Below, in pieces: positions 37,293 through 63,126 of a stretch of 64,000 nucleotides of DNA. The notes below the pieces were generated by a model. The model was given only the letters and a program-made list of their open reading frames with translations. It did not search any database and was not told where the DNA came from. Both the position numbers and the translations under genes were made by a program. The stretch comes from an uncultured cyanobacterium (lineage in GTDB: Bacteria > Cyanobacteriota > Cyanobacteriia > Leptolyngbyales > Leptolyngbyaceae), in contig CAVYAN010000072.1 of assembly GCA_963766075.1 (NCBI GenBank), forward strand, positions 160,001-224,000, given 5' to 3'. Positions within the stretch are counted from its first letter, which is position 1, and every line of letters starts with the position of its first letter.

Positions 37293-38503
37293 TTGATTCT
37301 GCTCTCCATGCTTGGTCTAGGCTGGATTGGCCTAATCCTCTATTCGGTGTATTTGCAGCGGGCCATCGGTGCGATCGCCCAACTAAAGCCCCTGCCCTCC
37401 GCACATTATGAAGATGCACAGGGGGAAAATTTTCCCAGAGTGACGGTGATTATCCCGGCCTACAACGAAGCCGAAAACATTGAAGCGTGCGTGCTATCTG
37501 TGCTGGAGAGTACACACTTAGGGGCTGATCGCCTAGCTATCTGGGTTGTCGATGATCAATCCACGGATGCCACGCCGAAGTTATTACAGAATTTGGCGGA
37601 GCGATCGCTCGATCCCCGCCTCCAGATTTGGGCCGGACAGCCCCGCCCCAGGGACGCCCAATGGCGCGGCAAAAACTGGGCCTGTGTCCAAGCCGCCGAT
37701 CGCACCACCAGCGAATTTATCCTATTCATCGATGCGGATGTGCGGCTGCAACCGGGGCGATCGAGGGGGCGGTGCAGACTGCCCAAGCCCAATCGGTGGA
37801 TCTGTTGAATTGTGTACCGGCCTTGGTCTGTGGCTCGTTGGTCGAATGGTTGGTCCAGCCCCTGATTTTCATGAATCTGCTCATGTCTTTTGATTCAGCG
37901 GCGGTTAAAGATCCCCAAAATGCCACAGCCTTTGCCGCCGGTCCGTTTATGCTGTTTCGACGAACCGCCTATGAGGCCGTCGGCGGACACCGAGCTGTAG
38001 CCGATCAAATCGCCGAAGATGTCGCCCTGGCCCGCCGGATTAAGCACCACGGACTGCGCCTGGGGTATTACCTGGGTGCAAACATCGCCAGCTTGCGGAT
38101 GTATCGCACCTGGAGCACGCTGTGGGAAGGCTGGACCAAGGTTTTGTATGTGGGTGCCCAGCGAAATGCTCTCCTAATGGTATTGCTGGCGGCAATGATG
38201 ATGACACTGTTCTGCATACCCGGATTCAGCTTCGCTATTTTTGTTTTTCAGATCTTAATAAACTCCTGGGGGAGCGGGACGGGTTGGGTTGGGGTAAACC
38301 TGGGGTGTGTCGCGATCGCGCTCCTTTGCGTCGGTTGGCACTATCGCCTGCGGATTCAGATCGCCCAAGCGTTGAACAGCAGCCCCAAGTATTGGTGGTT
38401 GCAAAGTGTGGGTGGGGGGATGGTGGCGGCCTTGGCGATCGCCTCGGTGATCAAAACCGAGACGGGTTGGGGCTGGACCTGGCGAGGGCGATCGTTAAAG
38501 TAG
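37293..38503 (+). CDS. Membrane family 2 glycosyltransferase; 1-nt frameshift at the G4 run 37754-37757
   Basis: IIPAYNE, VDDQSTD, GKNWAC, FIDADV in ORF1; EDVALA, RMY, GWTK in ORF2; one more G fuses them. Confidence 0.85.
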
Positions 38504-43837: not shown

Positions 43838-44227
43838 TTGCCCATGAGTCATCTACCCTTCCCAGAATCCTCCGCCAAATCCCATTCAGAATCTCCCCCC
43901 CAGTCTCACTACGTGTATCTTGCCCGGTGCGCCAATGGTGCCATTTACACGGGGTACAGTAACAACGTGGCCCAGCGGATTGCCACCCATAATGCGGGTA
44001 AAGGCGGGCACTACACGCGCGCCCACCGCCCCGTAGAGCTTTTAGTCTGCTGGTCTTGCCGAACCAAGACCGCAGCCCTGCAAGCAGAATATGCCATTAA
44101 GCAGCTACCCCGCCAGAAAAAGCTGGCTTTGGCCGCTGGGGACCATCCCCCGGAATGGTTGCATCGTTTTCTCTCACTCCCCTCTGGCCTCACCGACTCA
44201 TCGTCTTCCCCTCATCCCGCAGCATGA
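43838..44227 (+). CDS. GIY-YIG nuclease family protein (UPF0213/YhbQ-like)
   Basis: YVY-RC-G-IYTG, R-HN-GKG-YTR-RPV, AE-IK. Confidence 0.88.
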   Translation: MPMSHLPFPESSAKSHSESPPQSHYVYLARCANGAIYTGYSNNVAQRIATHNAGKGGHYTRAHRPVELLVCWSCRTKTAALQAEYAIKQLPRQKKLALAAGDHPPEWLHRFLSLPSGLTDSSSSPHPAA

Positions 44228-47495: not shown

Positions 47496-49504
47496 TCACT
47501 GAGCCGAGTGTCCCGTGCCCGCCCGCTGAACAACGCTGATGAAGGCATCTTCGAGGGAAAAGGGCACCGGGCGATGGGATTGCAGTTGGATATGGGCATT
47601 AGACAGGAGCGTTTGAATTGGGGGCATGTCGGTGTCGGGATGGTCGAGGACAACATGGAGGCGATCGCCAAAAATGGCCACCCGCCAACCGTCCAAATGC
47701 GTTTTAAGGACATCGGCGGCCTGCTGGTTGCGATCGACACGCATTTCGATCAGTTGGCCCGGTTGAGCGGCCTTGATTTCGCTGGGCGATCCCTGCATCA
47801 CCAACTCCCCCGCCACCATAAAGCCCATGCGGTTGCATTGTTCCGCTTCCTCTAGATAGTGAGTGGTGACCAGAACCGCCGTTCCGCGCTGGGCAAAATC
47901 ATTAATCAGCCGCCAAAACTGCCGCCGCGCCAAGGGATCCACGCCAGAGGTCGGCTCATCCAGAAATAAAATTTCCGGCTCATGCATCACGGAAGCGCCA
48001 AAGGCCACGCGCTGCTTCCAACCGCCAGGAAGCTGTCCCGTCATCAAATTTTCCTGCCCGACTAGGCCGCAGATGTCCATCACCCAGGCAATTTTTTGCT
48101 GCCGCAACCGGACAGGGACTTCATACACCCCGCAATAAAACTCCAGATTTTCCACGACGCTTAAATCATCATACAGCGTGAATTTTTGGCTCATATAGCC
48201 AATGCGCCGCCGCAGAGCCCCGCTTCTAAGTTCTGGGTTTGGCCCGCCAGGGAAATATCACCTTGGCTCGGAGGCAGCAGCCCACAAAGCATTTTGATCG
48301 TGGTGGTTTTTCCAGCCCCATTAGCTCCCAGCAAGCCAAAAATTTCGCCATAGCGCAATGTCAAATTGATGTTTTTAACCGCATGAAAAGTTGCCAAACG
48401 TCTTGTGCAGATTATGGGCACCAATGGCAATACATTGTTAGCAATTTTGAATTTTGAATTTCGAATTTCCGTCGGTATAGCCGTCGGCAATGGAATAAAC
48501 GGCGGATTCCGGAACCCTGCTGTCGTAGGCGGGTGACAAAAACGTTTTCCAGAGTTGGCTGTCTGGTCAAGGCTGAATCGAGCGGCAGATGATTCAGTTG
48601 CAGCACAGTCCGCACTTGGGCTTCGGCATGGACGGATCGGTGACGAGGACATCGAGGCGATCGCCAAAGGTTTGAATATCCCGAATGTCTGTGGCTGGGG
48701 CTGCGCTGGTGGCTGTCACCAAAGGCATCAGCGCCCGTTCAGCGGCAGCAATGTCTGGCGTGCGAATTTCTAGGCGTTGCAGGCCCAGGTTGGCCCGCAG
48801 TTGCGGCAGGGTGCCGACTTCGTGAATTTGCCCTTCGTACATCAGGGCAATCCGGTTGCAGCGTTCGGCCTCGTCCAGATAGGGCGTGGCGACAACAATG
48901 GTCATGCCTTCGCTGGCCAGGGCGGCCAATACATCCCAAAACTCTCGCCGCGACACGGGATCTACTCCAGTGGTGGGTTCATCCAGCAGCAGGATTTGCG
49001 GTTGAGGAATTAGGGCACAGCAGAGGGCAAGTTTTTGCTTCATGCCGCCGGAGAGTTGGCCAGCAAGGCGATCGCCAATCTGTTCCAGCCCCATCAGGGT
49101 CAGATATTTCTGCCGCCGCTGCTGAAAGTCGGACTCGCTACGCGCCGCAGTCCAGCGGTGTAGCGCAGGTTTTCATCAATGCTAAGGTCGAGATACAGGG
49201 AAAACTGCTGGGTGAGGTAGCCCATGTTCAAGCGGGCGTTGCGGGGCTTTTTTCCCAGCACATCAATCGTGCCGCCGGAGGCTTCCATAATGCCGCCGAG
49301 AATGTGAAAGGTGCTGGTCTTTCCGGCCCCATCGGGGCCAATTAAGCCAAAAATTTCCCCTGCATACACCTCGAAGTCGATGCCTTTGACAGCGAGTAGC
49401 GGCCCATAACGCTTTTGCAGACCCCCGACACGAATAATGGGAACATTCCCAGAGGACGCACTCGTAGTTTCAACAATGGAGGTGGGTAGGGCACTGGCGG
49501 TCAT
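47496..49504 (-). CDS. Double-NBD ABC ATPase (YbhF-like), broken by about six single-base indels
   Basis: [22 protein letters not shown]; second [23 protein letters not shown]. Pieces lie in different frames (indels near 49140, 48635, 48510, 48432, 48388, 48225). Confidence 0.8.
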
Positions 49505-49545
49505 TTGAGTATCTCCGGTGGGGCAGTCGATTTTCAATTAAGTGA

Positions 49546-52500
49546 CTAGAGTTCTTTCTCCCGTAGCGTTTGCAGCACTTTGGGCGTGAAGGGATTTTTC
49601 CCGGCTTGGAGGTCTTTGATCCAGGCTTGGCGTTGGGCTTTGCGATCGTCTTCCTCTGTCCATTCGACAAAGGCTTGGAAGTCGGCGATCGCTCCCTCAA
49701 CATCTCCCGTCATTGCCCTGGCCAGACCGCGACTATCCCGATATTCACCATTGTCTGGATCCGCCGCCACCACTTTTTCGCAAATGGACATCACGGTTTC
49801 GGCCTGATTCCAGACACTGCCACCACCACAGAGAATATTCCAGTTGGTTGTCATACGGTTATCACGTCGTTCATCTGGAAGCAGAGTTTCTGCCTGCTGT
49901 ATGAGGGCGATCGCCTCGGTGATTTTACCTTGGCGGATCAGCGGTGAAGTCTGTTCAATGATCCCCCAGGCAACAAACTGGCGGGCAGACTGCTCTGGTT
50001 CCAACGCTGTGTCTGGATTGAGTTGCAATACCTGGCGAAACTTCTGCACCACAGGCTCTAGCTTCCCTTCCCTTGCCAGGTTATACCCTTCCCAAAATAA
50101 GCGGTCAGACTTACCCCGCGCGGCCCATTGTTGTGCCTCGGTTGCTGGGTTCAGCGATAGTCGCGGTTCAAGTTGTAACGCCTCCTGAAACTTGGCCACG
50201 GCGGTTGGAATACTTTCATCCAAGGCTAGATCCTGACCTTCTTCAACCAGACGTTGGGCTTTTCCCTGGTTGGCAAGCTGTTGCGCTTCCTGTTCAGGAT
50301 CAAATTTTAAATTAGGGTCTTGCTGCAAGGCTTGGCGCAGCAGGTTAACTGCATTGGGAATATCCCCCAGCCTTGCCAGGGTGCGTCCAGCGGGCAGCAG
50401 GGTGGCTGGGTTCTGGCAGGTGTCTAGTTCCAGCAGCCGTTGCGGATGGGAGATCAGGTAATCCTGGAGCAGGGTGCAGCCTTGAGCCATCAAGGTTGGG
50501 GTCGAAGCCAGATCACTAAGACTCCACAGATAAGCCGTACCATTAACGATAAAAGCAAGGCTCTGGCCATCGGGACTAAAGTTCGGAAAATAGGGCAAAC
50601 TGTCGGCTTTCAGGGTGGTGATCAGGGTGCCATCGCGTTTCCAGAGTCTGATGGCGTTATCTTCTCCCGAAGTGGCGATTTGTTGACCATCGCGACTGAT
50701 CGCTACCTCTGTAACGGCGGCAGCTATGTCCCTTCAGGGTAGTGATGAGCTTGCCATCTAATGTCCAGAGTTTTGCCGTTTTGTCGAAGCTGGCAGTGGC
50801 GATTGTTTGTCCATCTGCACTAAATGTGGCATAACTGATCTCACCCTGGTGCCCTTTTAAGACGAGTAATCAACTTGCCATCTCGCTGCCACAGGCTCAC
50901 TTTTGAGCCGGAATCTGAGCCAGCAAGCGTCAATACCATTGTCAAGTCAGGACTGATTCTTGCCCAATTTCCCCAGTTGATGGGTCCCGAAAACGCCTGA
51001 ATGAGTTTACCCTCCAATGTCCAGAGGCTCAGGGTTCTATCTTCGCGACTGAGGGTTGCGAGGGTTTGGCCATCCGCACTGAACTTAAGATTATTAATTG
51101 GGCTTTTTGTTTTAGGAAGCGTTCGGATCAGGGTGCCATCCGTGCGCCACAGTGTCAAGCGATGATCGGTACTGGCAAGGGCAAATATCTCCCCATTAGG
51201 ACTGACGGCGGAGTCATTGATATCAAATTGCCGGGTCAGGGTTTTGACGGCTGTACCATCGAGTTTTGCCAGGGTGATATTTCCGTCTACACCAAAGAGG
51301 AAGACGAACGGACGACCCGGAATAAATCTTAGACTGTCAATGCCCTGGTTATTGCCTTTCATTGAGGTGATTAAGGGGCTATGCAACTGCCAGAATTTAG
51401 CTGTGCCATCGCCACTGGTGGAAAGCAGGGTTTGACCATCTGGACTAAAGCTGAGGCTACTGACCCAACCACTGTGCCCTTTGAGAGTCCGTAGTAAGGT
51501 CCCATCTACTTTCCAGAGCTTGATCGTCTTGTCGTCACTGCCAGAAGCCAGGGTTTGGCCATCGGGGCTAAAACTGACAGTACGAACACTGTCGCTATGC
51601 CCTTTAAGGGTTTTGATTAGGGTGCCGTCTAGCTTCCAGAGCTTGATGGTCTGATCACCACTACCCGAAACCAGGGTTTGCCCATCCGGGCTAAAAGTAA
51701 CGGACAAGACCCGATCGCGATGCCCCTTTAAGGTTTTGATCAAAGAGCCGTCCGGTTTCCAGAGTTTAATAGTGCGGTCATCACTGGCCGTTGCCAGGAT
51801 TTGGCCGTTAGGACTAAAACTAACCTGATTGATCGGCTTAGGGCGTCCTTTCAGAGTGTGCAGCAGGGTGCCATCGCGTTTCCAAATTTTGGTCGTGTTA
51901 TCTGCACTCGCAGAGACAAGCGTTTGTCCATCCGGGCTAAAAGCAACACTGGTCAGCTCATCTTGATGCCCTTTCAGCGTTTTCAACCGCTGACCATCGA
52001 TACTCCAAAGTTGCACGGTGCGATCGGCGTTTGCGGTAGCCAAAGTCTGACCATCCGGACTAAAACTCACGCTAAAGACATAATCAATTGTCCTCAGGGT
52101 TCGGAGCAACGTGCCATCCCGCCGCCACAGTTTGATCGTCTTATCATCACTGGCGGTGGCAATCATGTTGCCATCCGGGCTGAAACTCCCCTGCCGCAGG
52201 TAATCATTGTGTCCTTCCAATCGATTTTGCTCTTTTACCCCATAGATCACCTGCTGCAACGTGCTGATGGCTGCGGCTTGGTTTTCGGTGTCGGGATGGG
52301 TTGACTTTTTGAGTTGTTGGCCCAGTTTGATCGCAGTAATTAACGCCTCAATATCTTGATTGGATGCCAAATAGGCATTAGCCGAAGCACTCAGCGCCAG
52401 GATTTGGCCTTTTTCGGCTTCCAGTTGGCGCTGTTTAGCCTGCTGATATTGGGTAAAAGCGATCGCCGCCAGTCCCATCGCTCCCACCAACCCAACCGTA

Positions 52501-53120
52501 GATACAATCCGGCCCCGTCGCTGCCGCTGAATTTCAGCTTTGCCACTGGCCAAAATGTATTGAGTTTGCAGCGTGGTGGGCTTGGGATCGTTGTCCAGTC
52601 CCCGGCTTAACCAGCGATCGGCGGCTTTTAGATCATTTCCCCGCAGCAAAAAGCTGCCATCTCGTTGACTTTGATCCCACTCGATCGCCCTTACCAACAA
52701 CCGCGTATGGGCGCGCACATACTCCAGATCGGTATCGATCACCGTCAGCAAATCTTGAAAGGCGAGATCGAAATCATCCGCCTCCCGCACAAATAGCCAA
52801 TTATGCTTTTGCAGCGCGGGATGCACCTGCTGAGCATCAAAATCATCCCGGCGAACCACTGGCACCAAGCGCTTATTATGGGTCACGGCATGGTCAATCT
52901 CTTGACCACAGACCTTAGACGCCACCGAATCGGGACTAATCACAAAAACAAACATATCGGCAGCTTCGATCCCACGCTCAATTTCCTGCCACCAGTCAGC
53001 GGAAAGGGGGATATCTTCCCAATCAACCCAGGTTTCGCGATCGCCCTGGATCAATCGACCATGCAACACTTTGACAAAATCCTTGTCTTTGCGTGAGTAG
53101 GAGATAAAAACATCACTCAT
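49546..53120 (-). CDS. TIR - TM - WD40 - TPR protein; two +1 frameshifts near 50862 and 50724
   Basis: [11 protein letters not shown], one TM, many GH…FSPDG…W repeats. WD40 text continues through 50860-50600 in shifted frames ([31 protein letters not shown]) into the TPR ORF 49546..50598. Confidence 0.85.
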
Positions 53121-55397: not shown

Positions 55398-58300
55398 TTG
55401 GCAAGCTCGCGACAGAACTTGGATAATAGCAAGGAGACAGCGCTAGGGACACCGGGCCAGAGGAGCGACGCCGTGATTGAGCTGGGTGGGTTGGTGAATA
55501 CCCTTCTAGGGTTTGGTACGGCGATCGCCAAGGACCGACTGCAACGCAGTGAGCTGGTGATCACGCTGCTGAAGAGTTTGGGCTTGGACCCGGATCATCC
55601 CCCGGCGGATTTTACGGCGGTGTATCAGTATGCGCTGGTGGAGTATGGGGTGGGCAAGCCTAAACCCGTGCTGGACATTTTTCGGCAGGTGGAAATTCAG
55701 CAGATTTTTCGGCGGGCTTTGGACCAGAACAATCCGGCGCTATTGCTGAAGGAAGGCGAAGCCTTTCTGGCGGAACATACACTGGGGGACGAACTGCAAG
55801 CCCTGGGGCTGAATGCCCAGCGGGAGCTGTATGGGTTTGCGGCGGTGTTTTTGGAGATTGCTAAGCGGACCCGCACTCCGGCGGAGGTGCTGACCAATCA
55901 GCGCTTGGACTCGTTGCATCGGCAGTTGGGCACGATGCAGGAGCGGCTGAATCGGTTGCCGACACTTGAAGGGATTCGCACGGAGATGGCGCGGTTGGCG
56001 GAGCAGGGGGTGCCCGCGGCCTCCGAGTCGAGTGCGGCGCAGCAATGTCGGGCCTTTGCCTTGGCGCAGCAGATGCGGGGCTGGTTCGAGACGCTGGGCT
56101 ATCGGTTTGAGCCGACGGAGGTGTGGGCGGATGATTATTTTGAGTGGATTCTGAATATTCCGGTGCGGCGGAATCGGTTTGATCGCATCCTGGTGCGGGG
56201 GATTGCCGGGGAGGCAGGACTGCGGGATGTGCTGGCGTTGGGGAATTCGGTGGCGACGCAGCGGACGGATGAGGGCTGGCTGGTGACGGCGCGGCGGATT
56301 AGTCGGGCGGCGCGGGATGCGGTGGAGCAGCCGGAAAATCGGCATTTGGACTGTTACACCTTTGATGAATTGGTGGATTTGGATGCGGATTTTAGTGGCT
56401 ATATTGCGTGGTTAGAGGCGGAGATTTTGCGGCGGGGAGTGGCGACGCAGTATGTGCCGTTGGCCTGTGCCAAGGAAGAGTTGGATCCGGTGACGAAGCA
56501 GCGGGTGACGGTGAGTCGCTACGATGAGCGGGACGGCTGGATTGATGGCTACTGCGATCGCTGGCTGGACGATTCCACGAAGGAACATATTTCGGTGCTG
56601 GGGGAGTTTGGCACGGGCAAGACCTGGTTTGCTTTTCACTATGCCCAGGTAGCGTTGCAGCGGTATCAGGAGGCGAAGGAGCGGGGCACGCAGCGGCCAA
56701 GGCTGCCGCTGGTGATTACGCTGCGGGACTATGCCAAGGCGTTGAATGTGGAAAATGTGCTGGCGGGGTTCTTTTTTACCCAGCACAATATTCGGCTGAA
56801 TAGTGAGGTGTTTGATCAGCTCAACCGCATGGGCAAGCTGCTGCTGATTTTTGATGGCTTTGATGAGATGGCGGCCAAGGTCGATCGCCAGCAGATGATT
56901 AACAACTTTTGGGAGTTGGCCAAGGTGGTGGTGCCGGGTGCAAAGGTGATCCTGACTTGCCGGACGGAGCATTTCCCAGAGGCGCAGGATGGGCGGGCGC
57001 TGCTGAATGCGGAGTTGCAGGCTTCGACGGCGAATTTGACCGGGGAAACGCCGCAGTTTGAGGTGTTGGAGCTGGAGAAGTTTACCGATGAGCAGATTCG
57101 GCAGGTGTTGGCGTTTCAGGCGACGGCGGCGACGGTGGAGCAGGTGATGGGGAATCCGCAGTTGCTGGATTTGGCGCGGCGGCCGGTGATGACGGAGTTG
57201 ATTTTGGAGGCGTTGCCGGATATTGAGGCGGGGAAGCCGGTGGATATGTCGCGGGTGTATTTGTATGCGGTGCGGCGCAAGATGGAGCGGGATATTAAGG
57301 CGGAGCGGACGTTTACGTCGTTGGCGGATAAGCTCTACTTTATGTGTGAGTTGTCGTGGGAGATGCTGTCTACGGATCAGATGAGTTTGAATTATCGGGA
57401 GTTTCCGGATCGGATTCGCAAGCTGTTTGGGGCGATGGTGCAGGAGGAGAAAGACCTGGATCACTGGCACTACGACATGATGGGCCAAACAATGCTGATC
57501 CGCAATGCCGATGGGGATTACACGCCCGCCCACCGTTCGCTCTTGGAGTTCTTTGTCGCCTACAAATTTGCAGCAGAATTAGGGGCCTTGGCTCCGGATT
57601 TTCTGGAGTTGGCGCAGATGCAATCGGATGTGGATTCGTCGTTGCCTGCGCGGGAGTATACGTGGTCGGAATATTTTGGACAGAGAGAGGGCGGTATTGC
57701 GCCGCTACAAGGATTTGTTAGTGAGAGTTTGGAAGTGTTGCGATCGGGCTTTGGTAATGCACCAATTACCAAAGCTGTTATAGATTTACTAACACCTATT
57801 ATTTTCAGTAAAATCCCACTAATTTATTTGACTGCCCACCAAAGAATACTAGTTAATATCTTGAAATCAACACAGCAAAAAAATAGAAATGATGTCGGTT
57901 ATGTAGGTGGCAATGTAGCAACGCTTCTTGTAAGTCATGACAAGTACGTACTTATTCGTCAAGATTTGAGTAACACCATAATACAAGCAGCAAATTTTGA
58001 AAACAGCATCTTACGCCTTACTGATTTTACGCAATCAGATTTAACTAATTGTAATTTTACGAAGATATTTGGAAAAGTTTCAACAATAGCCTTTAGTCCT
58101 GATGGTGTTTTTCTAGCTATAGGAGATAGTCATAATATAATTCGTTTGTTGGAAGTGGCCACAGGCCAAGAGGTCGCGACTTTATGTGGCCATGCTAGTT
58201 GGGTTTATTCATTAATTTTCAGCCCAGATGGATTATTACTCGCTAGTGGCAGCTATGACCAAACAGTAAAGATTTGGAATATCGAAATCGGTAAATGTGT

Positions 58301-59936
58301 CAAAACTCTATCTGGCCATACTGACTGGGTTCGTTCGGTTAAATTCAGTCCAAATGGAGAATCCATAGCCAGTGTTAGTTCAGAAATTTTACTTTGGGAC
58401 GTTCATTCGGGTGAGTGCTTACAGAAATTTTTGGGACATGAAAGTTGGATATATTCAGTAGATTTTAGTCCTTGTGGAAAAAACATAGCAAGTGCTAGTT
58501 ATGACCAAACAGTAAGATTATGGGATACCTTAACTGGTGAATGCTACCAGATCTTAAAAGGTCATTCTGGTTCTATACAATCTGTCGCTTTTAGTCAATC
58601 TGGGGAACTGTTGGCGAGTGGAGGTGAAACCATCAGATTATGGGATTTAAATACGGGTAGATGTCTGCATGTTCTAGAGGAGCATACACAGGCGGTGTGG
58701 TCACTCGCCTTTTCTCATACAACAAGATTATTAGCTAGTGCTAGTGCTGATCAAAGCGTCAAGCTCTGGGATATCTCGACTGGGCAATGTCTTCAGACCC
58801 TAAAAGGACACACAGATCGAGTATATGCAGTAGCATTCCATCCCTCTGATGAAATATTTGCTAGTGGTAGTCATGACGGCACAATCCGTTTCTGGAGTAG
58901 TCTAACTGGCGAATGTTTAAAAGTTCTCCAAGGTTACACTGACGGTGTGTGCGAACTTAGCTTTAGCACAGATGGTGCTCACATAGCCCTTGGTGGTACA
59001 AATAAGCTAATTAAAGTATGGCAAGTATGGGTTGATCCGACTCTTAGCAAATGCACATTACGTAAACCGCAGGAATTTTCAGGTTATAAGGGGTGGGTTC
59101 AAGGAGTGGATTTCAGCCCAGATAATACGATGCTTGTAGGCGGGGGGCAGGAGATTAAGATATGGGATCTGAGTAGTGGTAAATGCTTAAAAACATTTCA
59201 AGGGCATAACGACTTAACTCTTTCCACACGGTTTAACTCATTAGGAGATATTCTTGCTACCGGTGGAGATGATTCTCAGGTTAAGCTATGGTCTGTAGAG
59301 ACGGGTGAATGTCTTAAGGTGATGAAAGGACACACCAACCGCGTTTGGAAGGTCATATTTAATTCTAATGATCAAGTATTAGCTAGTTGCAGTTCAGATG
59401 AAACCATCAGAATTTGGGATGTTGCATCTGGTCGATGTCTGTCCATATTTAAAGAACATTTAAGGCACATTTATTCTTTAGCATTTAGCCCCAGAAATGA
59501 CATTTTAGCTAGTGGTGGTGATGACCGAATAGTACGAATTTGGGATGTTAAAAATCAGCGATGTATAGCATCTTTTTCAGGGCATAGTAAGCCTATTTCG
59601 GCATTAAGTTTCTCATTTAGAGATGGAGTTCTTGCTAGTGGTTCGGATGACTCCACTATTAGAATTTGGAACATTCGCACAGGTCAATGTCTCCAGATTT
59701 TAAGCGGACATACCAACTCTGTACATGCACTAGCTTTTAATCCTCGAAATGGCATTCTAGCTAGTGGTAGTTTTGATGGATGCGTCAGATTTTGGAATGT
59801 GAAAACAGGAGAATGTCTATTCAATTTAACGGATCGCCCCTACGAAGGCATGACCATCACCGGAGTCAAAGGCTTAACCGAAGCTGAGAAAGCCACACTC
59901 AGAGCACTGGGAGCGGTGGAGGATCCTAATGTTTGA
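55398..59936 (+). CDS. STAND protein: N-terminal helical + Mrr/REase-like region, NACHT NTPase, pentapeptide-like segment, ~14 WD40 repeats, conserved tail
   Basis: GEFGTGKT Walker A, LLIFDGFDEM Walker B, HRSLLEFF, WD40 repeats, tail DRPYEGMTITGVKGLTEAEKATLRALGAVE; alternative GTG start at 55473 has AGGAG. Confidence 0.92.
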   Translation: MASSRQNLDNSKETALGTPGQRSDAVIELGGLVNTLLGFGTAIAKDRLQRSELVITLLKSLGLDPDHPPADFTAVYQYALVEYGVGKPKPVLDIFRQVEIQQIFRRALDQNNPALLLKEGEAFLAEHTLGDELQALGLNAQRELYGFAAVFLEIAKRTRTPAEVLTNQRLDSLHRQLGTMQERLNRLPTLEGIRTEMARLAEQGVPAASESSAAQQCRAFALAQQMRGWFETLGYRFEPTEVWADDYFEWILNIPVRRNRFDRILVRGIAGEAGLRDVLALGNSVATQRTDEGWLVTARRISRAARDAVEQPENRHLDCYTFDELVDLDADFSGYIAWLEAEILRRGVATQYVPLACAKEELDPVTKQRVTVSRYDERDGWIDGYCDRWLDDSTKEHISVLGEFGTGKTWFAFHYAQVALQRYQEAKERGTQRPRLPLVITLRDYAKALNVENVLAGFFFTQHNIRLNSEVFDQLNRMGKLLLIFDGFDEMAAKVDRQQMINNFWELAKVVVPGAKVILTCRTEHFPEAQDGRALLNAELQASTANLTGETPQFEVLELEKFTDEQIRQVLAFQATAATVEQVMGNPQLLDLARRPVMTELILEALPDIEAGKPVDMSRVYLYAVRRKMERDIKAERTFTSLADKLYFMCELSWEMLSTDQMSLNYREFPDRIRKLFGAMVQEEKDLDHWHYDMMGQTMLIRNADGDYTPAHRSLLEFFVAYKFAAELGALAPDFLELAQMQSDVDSSLPAREYTWSEYFGQREGGIAPLQGFVSESLEVLRSGFGNAPITKAVIDLLTPIIFSKIPLIYLTAHQRILVNILKSTQQKNRNDVGYVGGNVATLLVSHDKYVLIRQDLSNTIIQAANFENSILRLTDFTQSDLTNCNFTKIFGKVSTIAFSPDGVFLAIGDSHNIIRLLEVATGQEVATLCGHASWVYSLIFSPDGLLLASGSYDQTVKIWNIEIGKCVKTLSGHTDWVRSVKFSPNGESIASVSSEILLWDVHSGECLQKFLGHESWIYSVDFSPCGKNIASASYDQTVRLWDTLTGECYQILKGHSGSIQSVAFSQSGELLASGGETIRLWDLNTGRCLHVLEEHTQAVWSLAFSHTTRLLASASADQSVKLWDISTGQCLQTLKGHTDRVYAVAFHPSDEIFASGSHDGTIRFWSSLTGECLKVLQGYTDGVCELSFSTDGAHIALGGTNKLIKVWQVWVDPTLSKCTLRKPQEFSGYKGWVQGVDFSPDNTMLVGGGQEIKIWDLSSGKCLKTFQGHNDLTLSTRFNSLGDILATGGDDSQVKLWSVETGECLKVMKGHTNRVWKVIFNSNDQVLASCSSDETIRIWDVASGRCLSIFKEHLRHIYSLAFSPRNDILASGGDDRIVRIWDVKNQRCIASFSGHSKPISALSFSFRDGVLASGSDDSTIRIWNIRTGQCLQILSGHTNSVHALAFNPRNGILASGSFDGCVRFWNVKTGECLFNLTDRPYEGMTITGVKGLTEAEKATLRALGAVEDPNV
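59832..59924 (+). repeat. Array repeat R1 (coding 3' end of the NACHT-WD40 gene)
   Basis: gatcgcccctacgaaggcatgaccatcaccggagtcaaaggcttaaccgaagctgagaaagccacactcagagcactgggagcggtggaggat. Confidence 0.95.
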
Positions 59937-60228
59937 AATCCTGACTCCCCTACATTTTACGGTCAGAACTTCAGCAACCTACTGGCAAAAACTAATTGTC
60001 AAACATCCTGACATTGCCGAGTTATGCGATCTTGTCCAAGAAACCCTTCGCGACCCTGACGAAATTCGTCGCAGCAGCCATGACCCCAACGTTCTTCTAT
60101 TTTATCGATCGCACCGCGAAAACCGCTGGGTCGTAGCCGTTGCCCGAAAACTCAACGGAGACGGCTTCCTGATCACCGCCTATCAAACCGACGCAATCAA
60201 AGAAGGAGAATCAATATGGCACAGATAA
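59929..60228 (+). CDS. Cassette A gene 1: putative RelE/BrnT-like (DUF4258-type) toxin
   Basis: 99 aa, KHP…L-DPDEIR-S-DP-V-LFY…ITAY pattern; overlaps a DUF2283-like partner. Confidence 0.65.
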   Translation: MFEILTPLHFTVRTSATYWQKLIVKHPDIAELCDLVQETLRDPDEIRRSSHDPNVLLFYRSHRENRWVVAVARKLNGDGFLITAYQTDAIKEGESIWHR

Positions 60229-60449
60229 AAGTCTTTTACGAACCCGAAATGGAACTCCTCACCATCTTTTGGCAAACCCCCAGAACCCATCAAATTTGCA
60301 CCGAACTCGGCGATGGCGTAATTCTGATCAAAGATGCCAACACGGGTGAACCGCTAGGCTTAGAACTACTCTCCTATCATCCAGGGGATAGCCGATTTGA
60401 TACGGTCAGCGTCGAAATTGGCCAGTCATCCAGCCCCGCAATAGTATGA
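60216..60449 (+). CDS. Cassette A gene 2: DUF2283-like putative antitoxin
   Basis: KVFYEPE-E-L-I-W…DGVILIKD-G-P-GLE-L pattern. Confidence 0.7.
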   Translation: MAQIKVFYEPEMELLTIFWQTPRTHQICTELGDGVILIKDANTGEPLGLELLSYHPGDSRFDTVSVEIGQSSSPAIV

Positions 60450-60520
60450 ACAACACGGTCGTCAAAGGCTTAACCGAAGCCGAGAAAACCACCCTCAAAG
60501 CCCTGGGAGCAGTGGAGGAT
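60446..60520 (+). repeat. Array repeat R2 (5'-truncated)
   Basis: atgaacaacacggtcgtcaaaggcttaaccgaagccgagaaaaccaccctcaaagccctgggagcagtggaggat. Confidence 0.93.
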
Positions 60521-60558
60521 AGCAGCAGCATGAATGATTAGATGCAGGAGAATCAATA

Positions 60559-60750
60559 TTGTCAAAGAAATCATTTCGTAAATCAGTTGAAAGCATTCGA
60601 GATCAGATCAATCGCCATTATCAAAAAATCGCCGACGAGCAAACCAAAGAAAACCCTGATGAAAACCTGATTCACTATTGGCACAAAGAAATCGCAGGAT
60701 TAGAAAAAAGTCTCGCAAAAGCTGAAAAAAGATTAAGGAGAGGACAATGA
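60559..60750 (+). CDS. Cassette B gene 1: small basic helical protein
   Basis: 63 aa, TTG start with AGGAG, ATGA overlap with the next gene. Confidence 0.75.
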   Translation: MSKKSFRKSVESIRDQINRHYQKIADEQTKENPDENLIHYWHKEIAGLEKSLAKAEKRLRRGQ

Positions 60751-60995
60751 TTTCCACACTAAAAGCATCATCAGTCAATATCAATCCAACGCTACTCACG
60801 TTACTCGCAGAACTAGAGGAAGAATGTACCCAAGTACAGTCGCTCCTCACCCAGCTCAAACTCTCAACTCTCAGCGATGATCAAAAAGGGGACATCCTAG
60901 CGGCACTCGTCGGCTCCATCTGTCATCTCCATGTTCACACCGAAGACTTGCCCGATCTGATCCAAGATGAAATTGCCACACTTCCAGATGAATAG
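60747..60995 (+). CDS. Cassette B gene 2: small acidic helical protein
   Basis: 82 aa, AGGAGAGG RBS; stop codon overlaps the HIP1 site of R3. Confidence 0.75.
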   Translation: MISTLKASSVNINPTLLTLLAELEEECTQVQSLLTQLKLSTLSDDQKGDILAALVGSICHLHVHTEDLPDLIQDEIATLPDE

Positions 60996-61089
60996 CGATC
61001 GCCCCTACGAAGGCATGAACATCACCGGAGTCAAAGGCTTAACCGAAGCCGAGAAAGCCACCCTCAAAGCCCTGGGAGCCGTGGAGGAT
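60995..61089 (+). repeat. Array repeat R3 (full length, begins with intact HIP1)
   Basis: gcgatcgcccctacgaaggcatgaacatcaccggagtcaaaggcttaaccgaagccgagaaagccaccctcaaagccctgggagccgtggaggat. Confidence 0.95.
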
Positions 61090-61093
61090 CCTA

Positions 61094-61393
61094 ATGTTTG
61101 AAATCTTGACTCCCCTACATTTTACGGTCAGAACTTCAGCAACCTACTGGCAAAAACTAATTGTCAAACATCCTGATATCGCTGAGTTATGTAATCTGGT
61201 CCAAGAAACCCTCCGTGACCCTGACGAAATTCGTCGCAGTAGTCACGACCCCAACGTTCTCCTGTTTTATCGATCGCACCGCGAAAACCGCTGGGTCGTA
61301 GCCGTTGCTCGAAAACTCAACGGAGATGGCTTCCTGATCACCGCCTACCAAACCGACGCAATCAAAGAAGGAGAATCCATATGGCACAGATAA
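61094..61393 (+). CDS. Cassette A' gene 1: diverged copy of the putative toxin
   Basis: 98/99 aa identical to 59929..60228. Confidence 0.65.
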   Translation: MFEILTPLHFTVRTSATYWQKLIVKHPDIAELCNLVQETLRDPDEIRRSSHDPNVLLFYRSHRENRWVVAVARKLNGDGFLITAYQTDAIKEGESIWHR

Positions 61394-61614
61394 AAGTCTT
61401 CTACGAACCCGAAATGGAACTCCTCACCGTCTTTTGGCAAACCCCCAGAACCAATCAAATTTGCACCGAACTTGGTGATGGCGTAATTCTGATCAAAGAT
61501 GCCAATACCGGTGAGCCGCTGGGCTTAGAACTACTCTCCTATCATCCGGGGGATAGCCGATTTGATACAGTCAGTGTCGAAATTGGCCAGTCATCCAGCC
61601 CCGCAATAGTATGA
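61381..61614 (+). CDS. Cassette A' gene 2: DUF2283-like putative antitoxin
   Basis: 75/77 aa identical to 60216..60449. Confidence 0.7.
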   Translation: MAQIKVFYEPEMELLTVFWQTPRTNQICTELGDGVILIKDANTGEPLGLELLSYHPGDSRFDTVSVEIGQSSSPAIV

Positions 61615-61685
61615 ACCTCACCGGAGTCAAAGGCTTAACCGAAGCCGAGAAAGCCACACTCAAAGCCCTGGGCGCGGTGGAGAAT
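61611..61685 (+). repeat. Array repeat R4 (5'-truncated), followed by an A-rich AATTAAAAA tract
   Basis: atgaacctcaccggagtcaaaggcttaaccgaagccgagaaagccacactcaaagccctgggcgcggtggagaat. Confidence 0.93.
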
Positions 61686-61744
61686 GAATAATTAAAAATT
61701 AAAAATGTAAAATTAAAAAATGTGTAGCTAGGAGTTTAGCAAAT

Positions 61745-61972
61745 ATGACGACTCTTGAGAAAATCAAACAGGATCTCAACCAACTAGATGAGTGGCAACT
61801 TCAGCAAGTTGCTGAATTTATTGAATCTGTCCGATCGCAACCAGAACAAATTGCCTGCGATCGCAAGCACATCTTAGAATTCCTCGCCCAGGTCCGGAGT
61901 CGTCATCCGTCACGGGCGATCGCAGAAATTGATCATGATCTCCAGCAGGAGCGCAACTCATGGGACAGTTAG
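61745..61972 (+). CDS. Cassette C gene 1: putative antitoxin
   Basis: 75 aa, L-E-QL-QV-EFIE pattern, ER-SWD tail overlapping the PIN gene start. Confidence 0.7.
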   Translation: MTTLEKIKQDLNQLDEWQLQQVAEFIESVRSQPEQIACDRKHILEFLAQVRSRHPSRAIAEIDHDLQQERNSWDS

Positions 61973-62403
61973 TCTTGCCCCCATCAGCGATCGTCTATAT
62001 CGATACCGCGATCCTCATTTATACAGTCGAAGCAAATCCAACGTACTTCACAGCCCTGCAACCACTGTGGCAACAGTTTCAAGCGGGCAACATAGAAATC
62101 ATCACCAGCGAATTAACCTTGATGGAGACCTTGGTCATGCCACTCAGAAATTCTGACCCCATATTGGCCTCTGATTATGAACAAATCCTAACTTCCTCTG
62201 AAATTCAACTACTCCCAATCACTCCATCAATCCTTAAAGCGGCCGCCCATATCAGAGCCACAAAAAACTTAAAAACACCAGATGCCATCCATGCCAGTAC
62301 TGCTATAAAGCATTCCTGTACTGTTTTTCTAACGAACGATAGAGGTTTTCAAGATACACCAAATCTACCCGTAATGATTCTCAGCGAAATTATCCAATCA
62401 TGA
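61960..62403 (+). CDS. Cassette C gene 2: PIN-domain (VapC-like) toxin
   Basis: YIDT-ILIY, SELT-E, LKTPDAIH-STA, FLTND acidic PIN residues. Confidence 0.9.
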   Translation: MGQLVLPPSAIVYIDTAILIYTVEANPTYFTALQPLWQQFQAGNIEIITSELTLMETLVMPLRNSDPILASDYEQILTSSEIQLLPITPSILKAAAHIRATKNLKTPDAIHASTAIKHSCTVFLTNDRGFQDTPNLPVMILSEIIQS

Positions 62404-62406
62404 AAA

Positions 62407-62473
62407 GCGGTTCGCCTCGGGCTTAACCGAAGCCTAGAAAGCCACCCTCAAAGCCCTGGGAGCGGTAGAGAAT
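62407..62473 (+). repeat. Array repeat R5 (internally deleted, GAG>TAG change)
   Basis: gcggttcgcc…ggcttaaccgaagcctagaaagccaccctcaaagccctgggagcggtagagaat plus A-rich tract. Confidence 0.88.
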
Positions 62474-62518
62474 TAAAAATTAAAAAATGTAAAACTAAAA
62501 ATGGAGTAAGGAGAACAT

Positions 62519-62758
62519 ATGCAATCAGCATTACGGATTACAACAACAGTTCTTTCAGGAGGCAAAATAGAACTTCAACTGCCGCTCGAATCAGTGGGTG
62601 ATGAAGTTGAAGTCTTTGTCGTGTTGCCTGAAAAACCGCAACCGCAGAAACGCTCCATTCTGGAGTTCTTTGCAGACGTTCACCGGCAAGGGCCATTCCG
62701 AACACCCGACGAAATTGATCGGGACATCCAGATGGAGAAAGATGCATGGGACAACTAA
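62519..62758 (+). CDS. Cassette D gene 1: putative antitoxin
   Basis: 79 aa, TAAGGAG RBS; RT-DEID-DIQ-E-D-WD tail like the cassette C antitoxin. Confidence 0.7.
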   Translation: MQSALRITTTVLSGGKIELQLPLESVGDEVEVFVVLPEKPQPQKRSILEFFADVHRQGPFRTPDEIDRDIQMEKDAWDN

Positions 62759-63029
62759 GCATCCCTGACGGCGCAACCCTCTACCTGGATACAGCCCCGA
62801 TCATCTACAGCAGTTTCTATCCTCACGGATTACCCTTTTTCCAGTTCATGATTCTATCCTGAGATTAGCGGCGCAACTCCGAGCCACAAACAGCCTCAAA
62901 ACTCCCGATGCGATTCATGCAGCGACGGCGCTCAATGTCGGTTGTACCCAATTTCTGACCAACGATGCGGGTTTACGAACTATTCCAGGATTATCAGTGG
63001 TGGTTCTGAAGGATGTGTTGAATGCTTAA
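62746..63029 (+). pseudogene. Cassette D gene 2: PIN/VapC toxin remnant with internal deletion and frameshift
   Basis: MGQLSIPDGATLYLDTAPIIYS, then in another frame QFLSSRITLFPVHDSILRLAAQLRATNSLKTPDAIHAATALNVGCTQFLTNDAGL…*; about 50 central codons are missing relative to the cassette C toxin. Confidence 0.85.
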
Positions 63030-63031
63030 AT

Positions 63032-63126
63032 GCGATCGCCCCTAGGTCAGCATGAACAACACGGTCATCAAAGGCTCAAACAAAACAGAGAAAGCCACAC
63101 TCAAAACTCTGGGAGCGGTGGAGAAT
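63032..63126 (+). repeat. Array repeat R6 (most diverged, starts with HIP1)
   Basis: gcgatcgcccctaggtcagcatgaacaacacggtcatcaaaggctcaaacaaaacagagaaagccacactcaaaactctgggagcggtggagaat. Confidence 0.88.

Follow-up and report, generated by a model that had tools for sequence, protein, structure and literature searches.

The window analysed here, a stretch of 64,000 nucleotides from an uncultured filamentous cyanobacterium of the Leptolyngbyaceae, carries on its + strand a gene of 1512 codons (55398..59936) whose protein matches NNH5 (155 bits), NA-iREase1 (153 bits) and NACHT (34.9 bits, cut-off 26.7), together with pentapeptide repeats and WD40 propellers, and closes on a conserved tail. A central NACHT NTPase, N-terminal NACHT-associated domains and a C-terminal repeat sensor are the features of bacterial NACHT proteins related to NLRs, and from these matches we describe the host gene as a bacterial NLR-like (NACHT-WD40) putative defence gene. 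An AF2 model covers its last 340 aa. No toxin domain was found among the domain matches of its protein.

Positions 59832 to 63126 are occupied by six co-oriented copies (R1 to R6, all on the + strand) of the last 75-94 nt of this gene, and each of the five intervals between them holds exactly one two-gene cassette, as a first-pass annotation made from the letters alone had described. The copies start at 59832, 60446, 60997 (HIP1 from 60995), 61611, 62400/62420 and 63032/63034. A blastn search of the 5.05-Mb assembly found these six alone (E 3e-43 to 3e-16), the next match being at E 0.22; since all six lie in one array, they do not correspond to a MITE or small dispersed repeat, which would have many dispersed copies, terminal inverted repeats and target duplications. 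R1 (59832..59936, DRPYEG...GAVEDPNV and stop) is the live gene end, closing the 1512-aa frame, and its stop overlaps the start of the first cassette gene (ATGTTTGA). The other five are orphan tails. R2 (60446..60541) has an open frame of 31 aa and R4 (61611..61691) one of 26 aa, the latter followed by an AT-rich leader up to 61744. R3 (60995..61101) is full length, begins with a perfect HIP1 that overlaps the TAG of the preceding gene, and overlaps the next start with its own stop. R5 (62400..62476) and R6 (63032..63126) are decayed: R5 has lost 1 nt, is frameshifted and contains an in-frame TAG, and R6, which begins with a perfect HIP1, carries a TAG and has an orphan-specific TAG-GTC variant that also occurs in the related genomes G047 and G050. 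The left edge of orphan tails varies (HIP1/DRP, ATG, or further upstream), while the right edge is fixed at the end of the tail. The annotation had also placed a HIP1 site in the tail, which is true of R3 and R6 and not of R1, where no perfect site is present, and had stated that R1-R4 differ largely at third codon positions, a weak claim because these account for 7 of the 14 variable columns.

The first cassette, A, consists of A1 (59929..60228, 99 aa), a putative PBECR2/DUF4258-like toxin with weak Pfam matches and 30% identity to a homologue in G049, and A2 (60216..60449, 77 aa). This pair had been called toxin-like plus DUF2283-like. A Pfam search with the A2 protein did not detect DUF2283, and the likeness is instead indirect, because A2 has 29% identity with its second-gene homologue in G049 (L139), and the G048 counterpart of that homologue (L087) does match that family. 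For cassette B (60559..60750, 63 aa, and B2, 60747..60995, 82 aa) no family was found, and homologues of B2 are present in the arrays of G047 and G044. Cassette A' (61094..61614) is a second copy of A, again with genes of 99 and 77 aa; the segments R3-A'-R4 and R1-A-R2 are 93.3% identical over 689 nt, and the genes differ synonymously at 27 codons and non-synonymously at 3. Cassette C (61745..62403) is an intact VapBC with a 75-aa antitoxin and a 147-aa VapC (61960-62403, PIN match 1.4e-19), of a type also found in the arrays of G014, G044, G047 and G050. Cassette D (62519..63029) is a broken VapBC in which a 79-aa antitoxin precedes a frameshifted VapC without about 52 codons, a PIN remnant; its intact counterpart sits behind the orthologue of the host gene in G084. 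The identification of these last two cassettes as antitoxin with VapC and antitoxin with broken VapC was thus correct. The cargo has the organisation of type II toxin-antitoxin (TA) systems, small two-gene operons with a recognised toxin fold, to which cassette A corresponds weakly and cassette B without any family. Units measure 0.55-0.8 kb and contain no integrase or other mobility gene.

Each cassette ends at the next repeat or at most about 5 nt from it, as first described. At the ends of A2, A2' and VapC the stop codon shares bases with the ATG of the following repeat, as ATGA, and the TAA of the broken VapC lies 2 nt before the HIP1 of R6. Codon overlap in the window is limited to these ATGA joints and to the R1-to-A1 and R3-to-A1' junctions, and AT-rich spacers of about 45-55 nt follow R4 and R5.

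The search for orphan tails flanking variable cargo behind NACHT-WD40 genes of other cyanobacteria, proposed with the annotation, was carried out and found them. From the top 80 named orthologue loci, 52 could be evaluated, and of these 12 have at least one orphan tail and 40 have none; the array-bearing loci include those of the near-complete genomes of Scytonema sp. HK-05 and Calothrix NIES-4101. Arrays within the same family extend to other genera. The longest is that of G050, where six orphan tails follow the gene tail and the cargo comprises MazEF-like genes, three types of VapBC, HNH with an antitoxin-like gene, and XisHI. At least four tails were counted in G047, and arrays also stand behind the orthologues in G014, G041, G042, G044, G045 and G084. 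About a dozen unrelated cassette families fill the slots, and some tail-tail pairs enclose no cargo. Families recognised in relatives' arrays are PemK, PIN, HNH, XisH/XisI and DUF433/DUF5615, as well as HicAB and MNT/HepT. Toxin genes are decayed in the arrays of G044 and G045. Most orphan frames are open, whereas several in G050 are frameshifted or contain stops, yet are placed before cassettes. A 25-mer specific to orphans was found in 3 of 90 family genomes, which belong to two genera; it lies within arrays only, except for one further site in G050.

Cassette content and order, whose comparison had likewise been suggested, differ between congeners. G014 and G041 agree in their host gene, in a MazEF cassette and in the flank downstream, but their homology stops where an orphan tail ends, and beyond it the cargo differs; Scytonema HK-05 and PCC 10023 differ likewise, as do two Calothrix genomes. 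The tails themselves are both concerted and mosaic: all six orphan tails compared in the window's genome (G000, four), G014 (one) and G084 (one) are nearest to the gene tail of their own genome, while one orphan of G050 (G050_o3) shares 95% identity with the gene tail of a congener and 84% with that of its own genome. These mosaic and concerted tails, with the single breakpoint in G014 and G041, suggest that recombination takes place at the tail. Cassettes found in different genera are 50-66% identical, and the host protein is 50-60% identical. As the two divergences are similar, an old array with differential loss would explain much without ongoing capture.

The same layout was also found behind an unrelated gene. 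Of 80 metagenome relatives of cassette A, 69 are free-standing, with neither kind of tail nearby, and 11 sit behind a type IIG restriction-methyltransferase gene accompanied by orphan copies of its tail (tail2); in G000 the same cassette is docked to the NACHT-WD40 tail. At least two co-oriented copies of tail2 are present in 14 of 401 sampled genomes, one-contig genomes among them, and in one genome (G073) all six orphan frames finish with TGATG or TAATG, overlapping the start codon that follows. The idea that cassettes are captured at a STAND gene tail therefore stands as regards the tail-bounded variable cargo, with recombination at the tail as its probable cause, but not as regards STAND genes, since the type IIG gene lends its tail to the same design. 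As it recurs across many cyanobacteria and also with a restriction enzyme gene as host, the arrangement looks like a general docking of modules onto defence genes. It also looks undescribed: no account of a tail-bounded layout was found by a full-text search of main articles outside subscription journals.

Concerning known systems, the closest comparison, already drawn in the annotation, is with the orphan arrays of Rhs, CDI and MafB loci. There too, small modules of one orientation stand behind a large conflict gene, each after a conserved fragment of that main gene, and orphan fragments of varying length share a fixed end point, as the variable left and constant right edges of the repeats do here. 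Module swapping in those loci is thought to proceed by homologous recombination at the conserved fragment, without a dedicated recombinase. The difference is that their fragment continues in frame into a toxin domain, which becomes the C-terminus of the main protein, whereas here the tail ends the host frame and the cargo consists of separate TA operons of intracellular RNase, PIN, MazF or HEPN type. A polymorphic toxin with a variable tip was rejected, since the stop of the host frame comes 3-4 codons beyond the tail, and each cassette is read from a start codon of its own. The analogy with integrons and CALINs, also proposed in the annotation, extends to compact cassettes of one orientation that leave promoters little or no room, a repeat just past the stop codon, frequent TA cargo and arrays that vary between relatives; it breaks down on attC structure and on a linked integrase, and here, in addition, the repeat is a coding gene end and a cassette has two genes. 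Integron attC sites are imperfect inverted repeats that fold as single strands and carry RYYYAAC and GTTRRRY cores. Three window repeats, folded as DNA for either strand, did not exceed shuffled sequences (z -1.3 to +0.9) and give no attC-type hairpin, and no GTTRRRY core was seen by eye on their 3' side. No integrase, transposase or reverse transcriptase was matched in the 42 scanned of 53 window ORFs of at least 110 aa, in agreement with what had first been noticed, and a complete integron is also rejected, as intI with attI is not adjacent: the TIGR02249-family (integron-integrase-family) gene of this genome lies on another contig. Integrative islands at the 3' ends of tRNA or protein genes likewise have direct repeats that copy the gene end, leave the target intact and pile up in tandem; they differ from the present units, which are small, lack mobility genes and have repeats that drift with the resident gene. 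Finally, TA islands, where closely spaced TA pairs from different classes are in excess, resemble this array, and their preferential incorporation at particular chromosome regions has been proposed (Makarova, Wolf and Koonin 2009, PMC2701414); in the available text of that study they are given without a boundary element or host gene, while here the boundary is the tail of the adjacent defence gene.

We consider it probable, at roughly 60%, that the locus is a gene-tail-bounded cassette array in which the conserved tail serves as a landing pad for homologous recombination. Each two-gene TA-type module is delimited by a copy of the last 25-31 codons of the host gene, in some genomes with a short sequence after the stop, and the tail copies would supply homology for adding, swapping, duplicating and deleting modules. 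This would happen through gene conversion and recombination of the RecA type, either between copies of the chromosome or with DNA acquired from relatives, and the HIP1/CGATCG sites that edge the repeats may assist it. The tail copies would often double as short, translationally coupled leader frames; since their stop and start codons overlap neighbouring cassette genes, the stack reads as one tightly coupled operon. Co-expression is predicted as well, and there may be a benefit such as addiction of the defence gene or back-up abortive infection. It should be noted, however, that homology alone explains neither the trimming of unrelated gene pairs to start and stop codon nor the tail-tail pairs without cargo, and that the 40 evaluable loci without orphan tails and the few codon overlaps in the window speak against the landing pad. 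A broader version, which we regard as possible but tentative, is a general cyanobacterial 'tail-homing' system, in which modules carry a copy of a defence gene's 3' end (NLR-like NACHT-WD40 or type IIG) as a HIP1-boosted homology arm and translated leader and act as swappable outputs or addiction units. HIP1 would behave like Chi and as an uptake signal, docking would occur after natural transformation or between chromosome copies with no recombinase of the system's own, and the leader would couple module expression to the defence gene. A preprint reports that HIP1 within homology arms raises integration up to 7-fold, in a Chi-like manner (bioRxiv 10.1101/2024.09.10.611283).

A different proposal, which we find doubtful, is that an enzyme acting on CGATCG/HIP1, or a tyrosine recombinase encoded at another locus, joins HIP1-flanked modules; the tail would be copied only because 75-95 nt separate the host's last HIP1 from its stop. 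In its favour, a C before GATCGCC, giving CGATCG, is found in 11 of 11 full-length orphan tails against 0 of 4 gene copies; in the unrelated host gene, too, a CGATCG lies no more than a few nt from where tail2 orphans begin on the left; tail pairs without cargo exist; all 11 family genomes tested (G000 and 10 of 10 relatives) encode integron-integrase-family genes; and in genus g20 the module of tail plus heptamers finishes in an inverted half, GGGGCGATCG, that pairs with the left edge in folds. Folding of the G050, G047 and G084 modules (z -0.9 to -3.4) comes solely from the pairing of HIP1 halves, while the window repeats fold like shuffles. HIP1 is moreover common in this genome (1.38 per kb) and not enriched in the array, the DRP codons by themselves hold 6 of its 8 bases, and several orphans begin at ATG or further upstream instead. 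The integrase-family genes, for their part, occur with or without arrays, and in G084 the gene is more than 900 kb from the array. Rather unlikely too is the view of the tail copies as expression adaptors, kept mainly as translated leaders passing ribosomes on to the next cassette from the defence gene or the cassette before, with recombination as a side effect. The overlaps at R1/A1, A2/R2, R3/A1', A2'/R4 and VapC/R5, those of all the G073 tail2 orphans, the mostly open orphan frames and the + strand spacers, where no sigma-70-like promoter was found and terminators are not in excess, agree with it, but R5, R6 and the interrupted G050 orphans still precede cassettes, heptamers and leader put about 100 nt between tail and next start in g20 arrays, and gene conversion from the functional gene tail could hold frames open without selection.

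Two further explanations would deny ongoing capture or part of the array itself. It is improbable that the array is a relic that an ancestor built a single time, duplicating the gene end and its downstream pair in series, and that it has since then only decayed and lost units: the similar divergence of cassettes and host between genera, the broken units (R5, R6 and VapC here, toxins in G044 and G045) and the many orthologues without arrays would be expected from it, while the dozen unrelated families in the slots, cassette A free-standing or on either of two gene tails, the congener's tail type inside the G050 array and the replacement of cargo between fixed flanks would not. Slimmer still is the chance that the 93%-identical R3-A'-R4 block came from a second strain and was joined in assembly through the shared repeat. 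The source assembly has 126 contigs and is 84.9% complete, exact runs common to the repeats are long enough to mislead an assembler, and the highest share of sampled words in any public run is 0.41; against this, the B2 stop codon, HIP1 and R3 form a continuous joint, one-contig genomes also show duplicated and mixed units, and such an error would shorten the array, not remove it.

For annotation, the layout accounts for dozens of mini-ORFs labelled 'WD40 fragment' or 'methylase fragment', which are array boundaries and not random pseudogenes. A tail-marker-tail design could allow simple gene insertion at defined sites in filamentous cyanobacteria. The arrays would also be a natural setting in which to test whether HIP1 acts, as proposed, in recombination and in the uptake of DNA. 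More generally, toxin-antitoxin islands would gain a concrete boundary element and a docking rule, and TA modules would acquire a physical link, and perhaps one in expression, to defence genes of the NLR-like and restriction kinds.

The host gene of the array lies at positions 55398-59936 of the window (plus strand) and encodes a 1512-aa protein with NNH5, NA-iREase1 and NACHT domains, a pentapeptide stretch and two WD40 propeller regions; the NACHT match scores 34.9 bits against a cut-off of 26.7, and PADLOC returned only a repeat-region match for this protein. Its last 31 codons (DRPYEG...LGAVE, the tail, R1) are followed downstream by five further copies on the same strand (R2-R6, the whole at 59832-63126). 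Exactly six copies were found by blastn in the 5.05-Mb assembly, a metagenome in 126 contigs that is 84.9% complete (E from 3e-43 to 3e-16; next match E 0.22), and at the protein level this genome has one extra tail, which terminates a different long STAND frame, on contig C101. The tail peptide is present in 34 of 41 related genomes and in 87 of the 90 genomes of the same family. Across these genomes it mostly closes frames of 1100-1540 aa, and the tail is therefore the conserved end of a protein, as opposed to a repeat that codes by chance. The tail itself has no model in Pfam or NCBIfam, and AF2 modelling of the C-terminal 340 residues, uninformative on the function of the tail, gives a confident propeller and then only a short helix of moderate confidence (pLDDT 65-75). 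The window also contains other conflict-type genes, namely TIR-NACHT (38498-41347, minus), TIR-WD40 (50844-53120, minus), a Ser/Thr kinase adjoining a WD40 gene (1768-3830, plus) and a GIY-YIG nuclease (43838-44224, plus), none of which ends with the tail. At 47499-49537 (minus strand) ABC_tran matches run across three adjoining ORFs of 232, 158 and 145 aa, perhaps because an ABC ATPase gene is broken up here or because the assembly has frameshifts.

The first-pass annotation proposed that each interval between successive tail copies holds one two-gene module, and we indeed found five such modules, all on the plus strand. Cassette A, in the first interval, encodes a 99-aa protein with weak PBECR2/DUF4258 matches and a 77-aa protein; it shares 29-30% identity with the homologous pair behind the orthologue tail in genome G049, whose counterpart in G048 has a weak PBECR2 match and a Pfam DUF2283 match. 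Cassette B (second interval) is a pair of 63 and 82 aa for which no family was found, cassette A' (third) is a second copy of A, cassette C (fourth) encodes a 75-aa antitoxin and an intact PIN/VapC, and cassette D (fifth) a 79-aa antitoxin and a frameshifted VapC with ~52 codons missing. PADLOC gave no matches for the cassette proteins of the window, and tblastn (E up to 0.01) did not confirm an apparent likeness between the frame after R6 and the end of the antitoxin of the HNH cassette.

The joints between tails and cassettes are tight. The host stop codon overlaps the start of A1, the first gene of cassette A, and the stop of the R3 frame overlaps that of A1'; A2, A2' and VapC each end in an ATGA joint, in which the stop codon shares bases with the ATG of the tail copy that follows. 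R3 begins with a perfect HIP1 site, overlapped by the TAG of B2, and R6 also begins with HIP1, the TAA of the broken VapC lying 2 nt upstream. AT-rich stretches of ~45-55 nt follow R4 and R5 up to the next start codon. A simple scan of the spacers found no sigma-70-like promoter and no terminator excess, and a comparison with Rfam up to E 0.1 gave no match. Decay is evident in R5 and R6, which contain stop codons and a frameshift. The differences among the repeats had been described as falling largely at third codon positions, a claim that proved weak (7 of 14 variable columns). For A against A' the argument is strong, since 27 codons differ synonymously and 3 non-synonymously, and the segments R1-A-R2 and R3-A'-R4 are 93.3% identical in nucleotide sequence; the order of the units in the window, above all the place of this 93%-identical A' block, is given as it appears in an incomplete metagenome assembly. 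When public sequencing runs were searched for sampled words, none contained more than 0.41 of them.

Orthologues of the host gene, a group defined by its N-terminal part, occur in 28 of the 90 family genomes, and in other genera too, as had been suspected, orphan tails flank varied cargo behind orthologous NACHT-WD40 genes. In G050 the gene tail is accompanied by six orphan tails, with MazEF-like cargo, three different VapBC types, an antitoxin-like gene with HNH, and XisH/XisI; in G047 a 3.4-kb contig carries four tails, the cargo being VapBC type C, DUF433/DUF5615, XisHI and the B-type pair. One to three cassettes each are found in G014, G041, G042, G044 and G045, and in G084 the counterpart of the broken cassette D is intact and has a full orphan tail behind it. 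Among genomes of named species we found 274 relatives and examined the best 80 loci, 52 of which were evaluable (gene tail present and 1 kb or more of sequence beyond it); 12 of these 52 have at least one orphan tail and 40 have none, kin genomes being non-independent samples in these counts. The positive loci include Scytonema sp. HK-05 (genome recorded as 'nearly complete') and Calothrix sp. NIES-4101 ('complete'), and further positive ones are records of Brunnivagina, Brasilonema, Symploca and Stigonema. In array-less orthologues of five genera (L071, L072, L073, L078, L086) a conserved convergent gene of ~195 aa ends ~10 nt past the tail, which looks like the plain, cargo-free and probably ancestral state of the locus. 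In Calothrix sp. NIES-4101 (L195, 14312-14640) and Brunnivagina (L196, 14189-14480) a second tail follows ~100 nt after the gene tail, with no cargo and a HIP1-rich spacer.

At L087 (G048:C189:1-7000, minus) a full orphan NACHT-WD40 tail lies directly 3' of an AIPR (abortive infection) gene and is followed by a three-gene PBECR2-like/DUF2283 cassette, with no STAND gene within view. At L065 (G015:C22:75000-87000, minus) a XisI gene and then an orphan tail come after a 292-aa N-terminal piece of the host orthologue; this is apparently an array whose host gene was mostly deleted.

A second, independent host gene emerged from the metagenome relatives of cassette A. The NACHT-WD40 tail was near none of 80 such loci, and 11 of the 80 lie directly 3' of a type IIG restriction-methyltransferase gene of a 1095-aa class (PADLOC PDLC03628 at 1187 bits; Pfam Eco57I), and orphan copies of the last ~34 codons of that gene (tail2) come after them. 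Loci of this second array type are L231-L234, L244 and L277 on metagenome contigs, L306 (G073:C1:4940000-4956000) and L307-L309. Tail2 is present in 38 of the 401 genomes sampled from the taxonomic class and was not found in the genome of the window; by the tabulated count, 14 of the 401 have two to six co-oriented copies with a spacing of up to ~2 kb, among them the one-contig genomes G073 (six copies) and G017 (four). The cargo consists of MNT/HepT, XisHI, HicAB, DUF2283 pairs and cassette A, and a copy of the restriction-gene tail precedes each cassette. Orphan frames of this array type overlap with their stop the start codon of the gene behind them; each of the six in G073 ends in TGATG or TAATG. 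As with the NACHT-WD40 tail, the left edges of tail2 orphans are at or near a CGATCG of the host gene. The cassette A family thus exists in three states: free-standing in 69 of the 80 metagenome loci (neither tail found nearby), docked to the restriction tail in 11, and docked to the NACHT-WD40 tail in the window.

Comparison of congeners confirmed that cassette content and order vary. G014 and G041, of one genus, have in common the host gene, a MazEF cassette and a downstream flank with gluconokinase and isoleucyl-tRNA synthetase genes; their DNA homology (88%) breaks off where an orphan tail ends and returns only at the flank, and in between one has VapBC type C with tails and the other a DUF433 pair. 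Identity between Scytonema HK-05 and PCC 10023 is 96% up to the end of the first cassette, after which an orphan tail and a VapC are present in one and absent in the other. Two Calothrix genomes have the first 1.2 kb in common and diverge thereafter, and in the genus g20 cargo and order differ in all five species. Cassettes common to different genera are 50-66% identical and the host proteins of those genera 50-60% overall (65-74% in the N-terminal part), so that cassette versus host divergence gives no sign of recent transfer between genera. A metagenome scan for a near-identical strain found none (best match 79%).

Over 75 nt, orphan tails are closest to the gene tail of their own genome in the genome of the window (four), G014 (one) and G084 (one), and this likeness persists even beside cassettes orthologous between genomes; one orphan of G050 (G050_o3) is 95% identical to the gene tail of a congener and 84% to its own. 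A variant of the opening codons that is specific to orphans and has a stop in place of the Tyr codon was seen in only 3 of the 90 family genomes; these belong to two genera with host proteins 50% identical to each other. A C precedes GATCGCC, giving CGATCG, in 11 of 11 full-length orphans versus none of four gene copies. The common module of g20 runs from a CGATCG site through the tail and a heptamer run to a second HIP1, and in some units it continues into a leader that has a -10-like box and a Shine-Dalgarno sequence. In several genomes, CGATCG sites within orphan tails or at their edges are interrupted by a mini-insert of 24-26 nt that contains a small hairpin (NACHT-WD40 tails at L056, L077, L090 and L122, tail2 at L244 and L306); this is perhaps a very small mobile repeat targeting HIP1.

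Orphan tails could be ordinary ends of WD40 pseudogenes. In other STAND families they are mostly ordinary gene fragments that retain WD40 sequence, often beside IS elements (L057, L058, L060, L061, L064, L079-L084), and in loci L027-L055 no second tail lies within 1.5 kb of the tail, except at the orthologue locus L040; for the orthologue group considered here this origin was rejected, its orphans having no upstream WD40 sequence. The first-pass annotation compared the array to an integron without a recombinase nearby. This absence holds: the window has 53 ORFs of 110 aa or more, and the 42 of them that were scanned gave no match to an integrase, transposase or reverse transcriptase. Genes of the integron-integrase family do occur in this genome and in 10 of 10 relatives tested; they are far from the arrays and present with or without them, and a linked integrase was therefore rejected. 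Repeats of attC type were rejected as well, because single-strand folds of the window repeats are no better than shuffles; those of the g20 module are modestly better, solely through pairing of HIP1 halves. The integrase-family gene of this genome (G000:C41:95203-96141, near a contig end; 464.6 bits, cut-off 265) has itself five orphan copies of its last ~40 codons (C31:37075, C31:99451, C17:164563, C65:49078, C8:67806), and ahead of three of the five stand the same ~60 nt, part of which forms an inverted repeat with the gene fragment.

Integrons, Rhs/CDI orphan arrays and islands stacked at gene 3' ends each have some features in common with the tail-bounded array, but it lacks a defining feature of each. 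For TA islands, Makarova and colleagues suggested preferential incorporation at certain regions (PMC2701414); no boundary element was found in the passages concerned, whereas the tail-bounded array has one. A full-text search of the literature outside subscription journals gave no description of such arrays.

Because the tail repeats recur, are concerted and mosaic, and have breakpoints at their edges, the simplest account, judged from sequence comparison, would be homologous recombination and gene conversion between tail copies. This account leaves unexplained the exact trimming of unrelated pairs at start and stop codons, the cargo-free tail-tail pairs of Calothrix and Brunnivagina, and the use of these two host genes. 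HIP1 might aid recombination at the tails: in a preprint (10.1101/2024.09.10.611283), homologous HIP1 in the arms is described as raising integration up to 7-fold, with Chi-like behaviour, and a 2026 paper (PMC13756078) contains the proposal that HIP1 is an uptake signal. In polyploid and often competent cyanobacteria, recombination between tail copies could take the form of unequal exchange, of deletion or of replacement by tail-cassette-tail DNA, and a circle might enter in a Campbell-type event.
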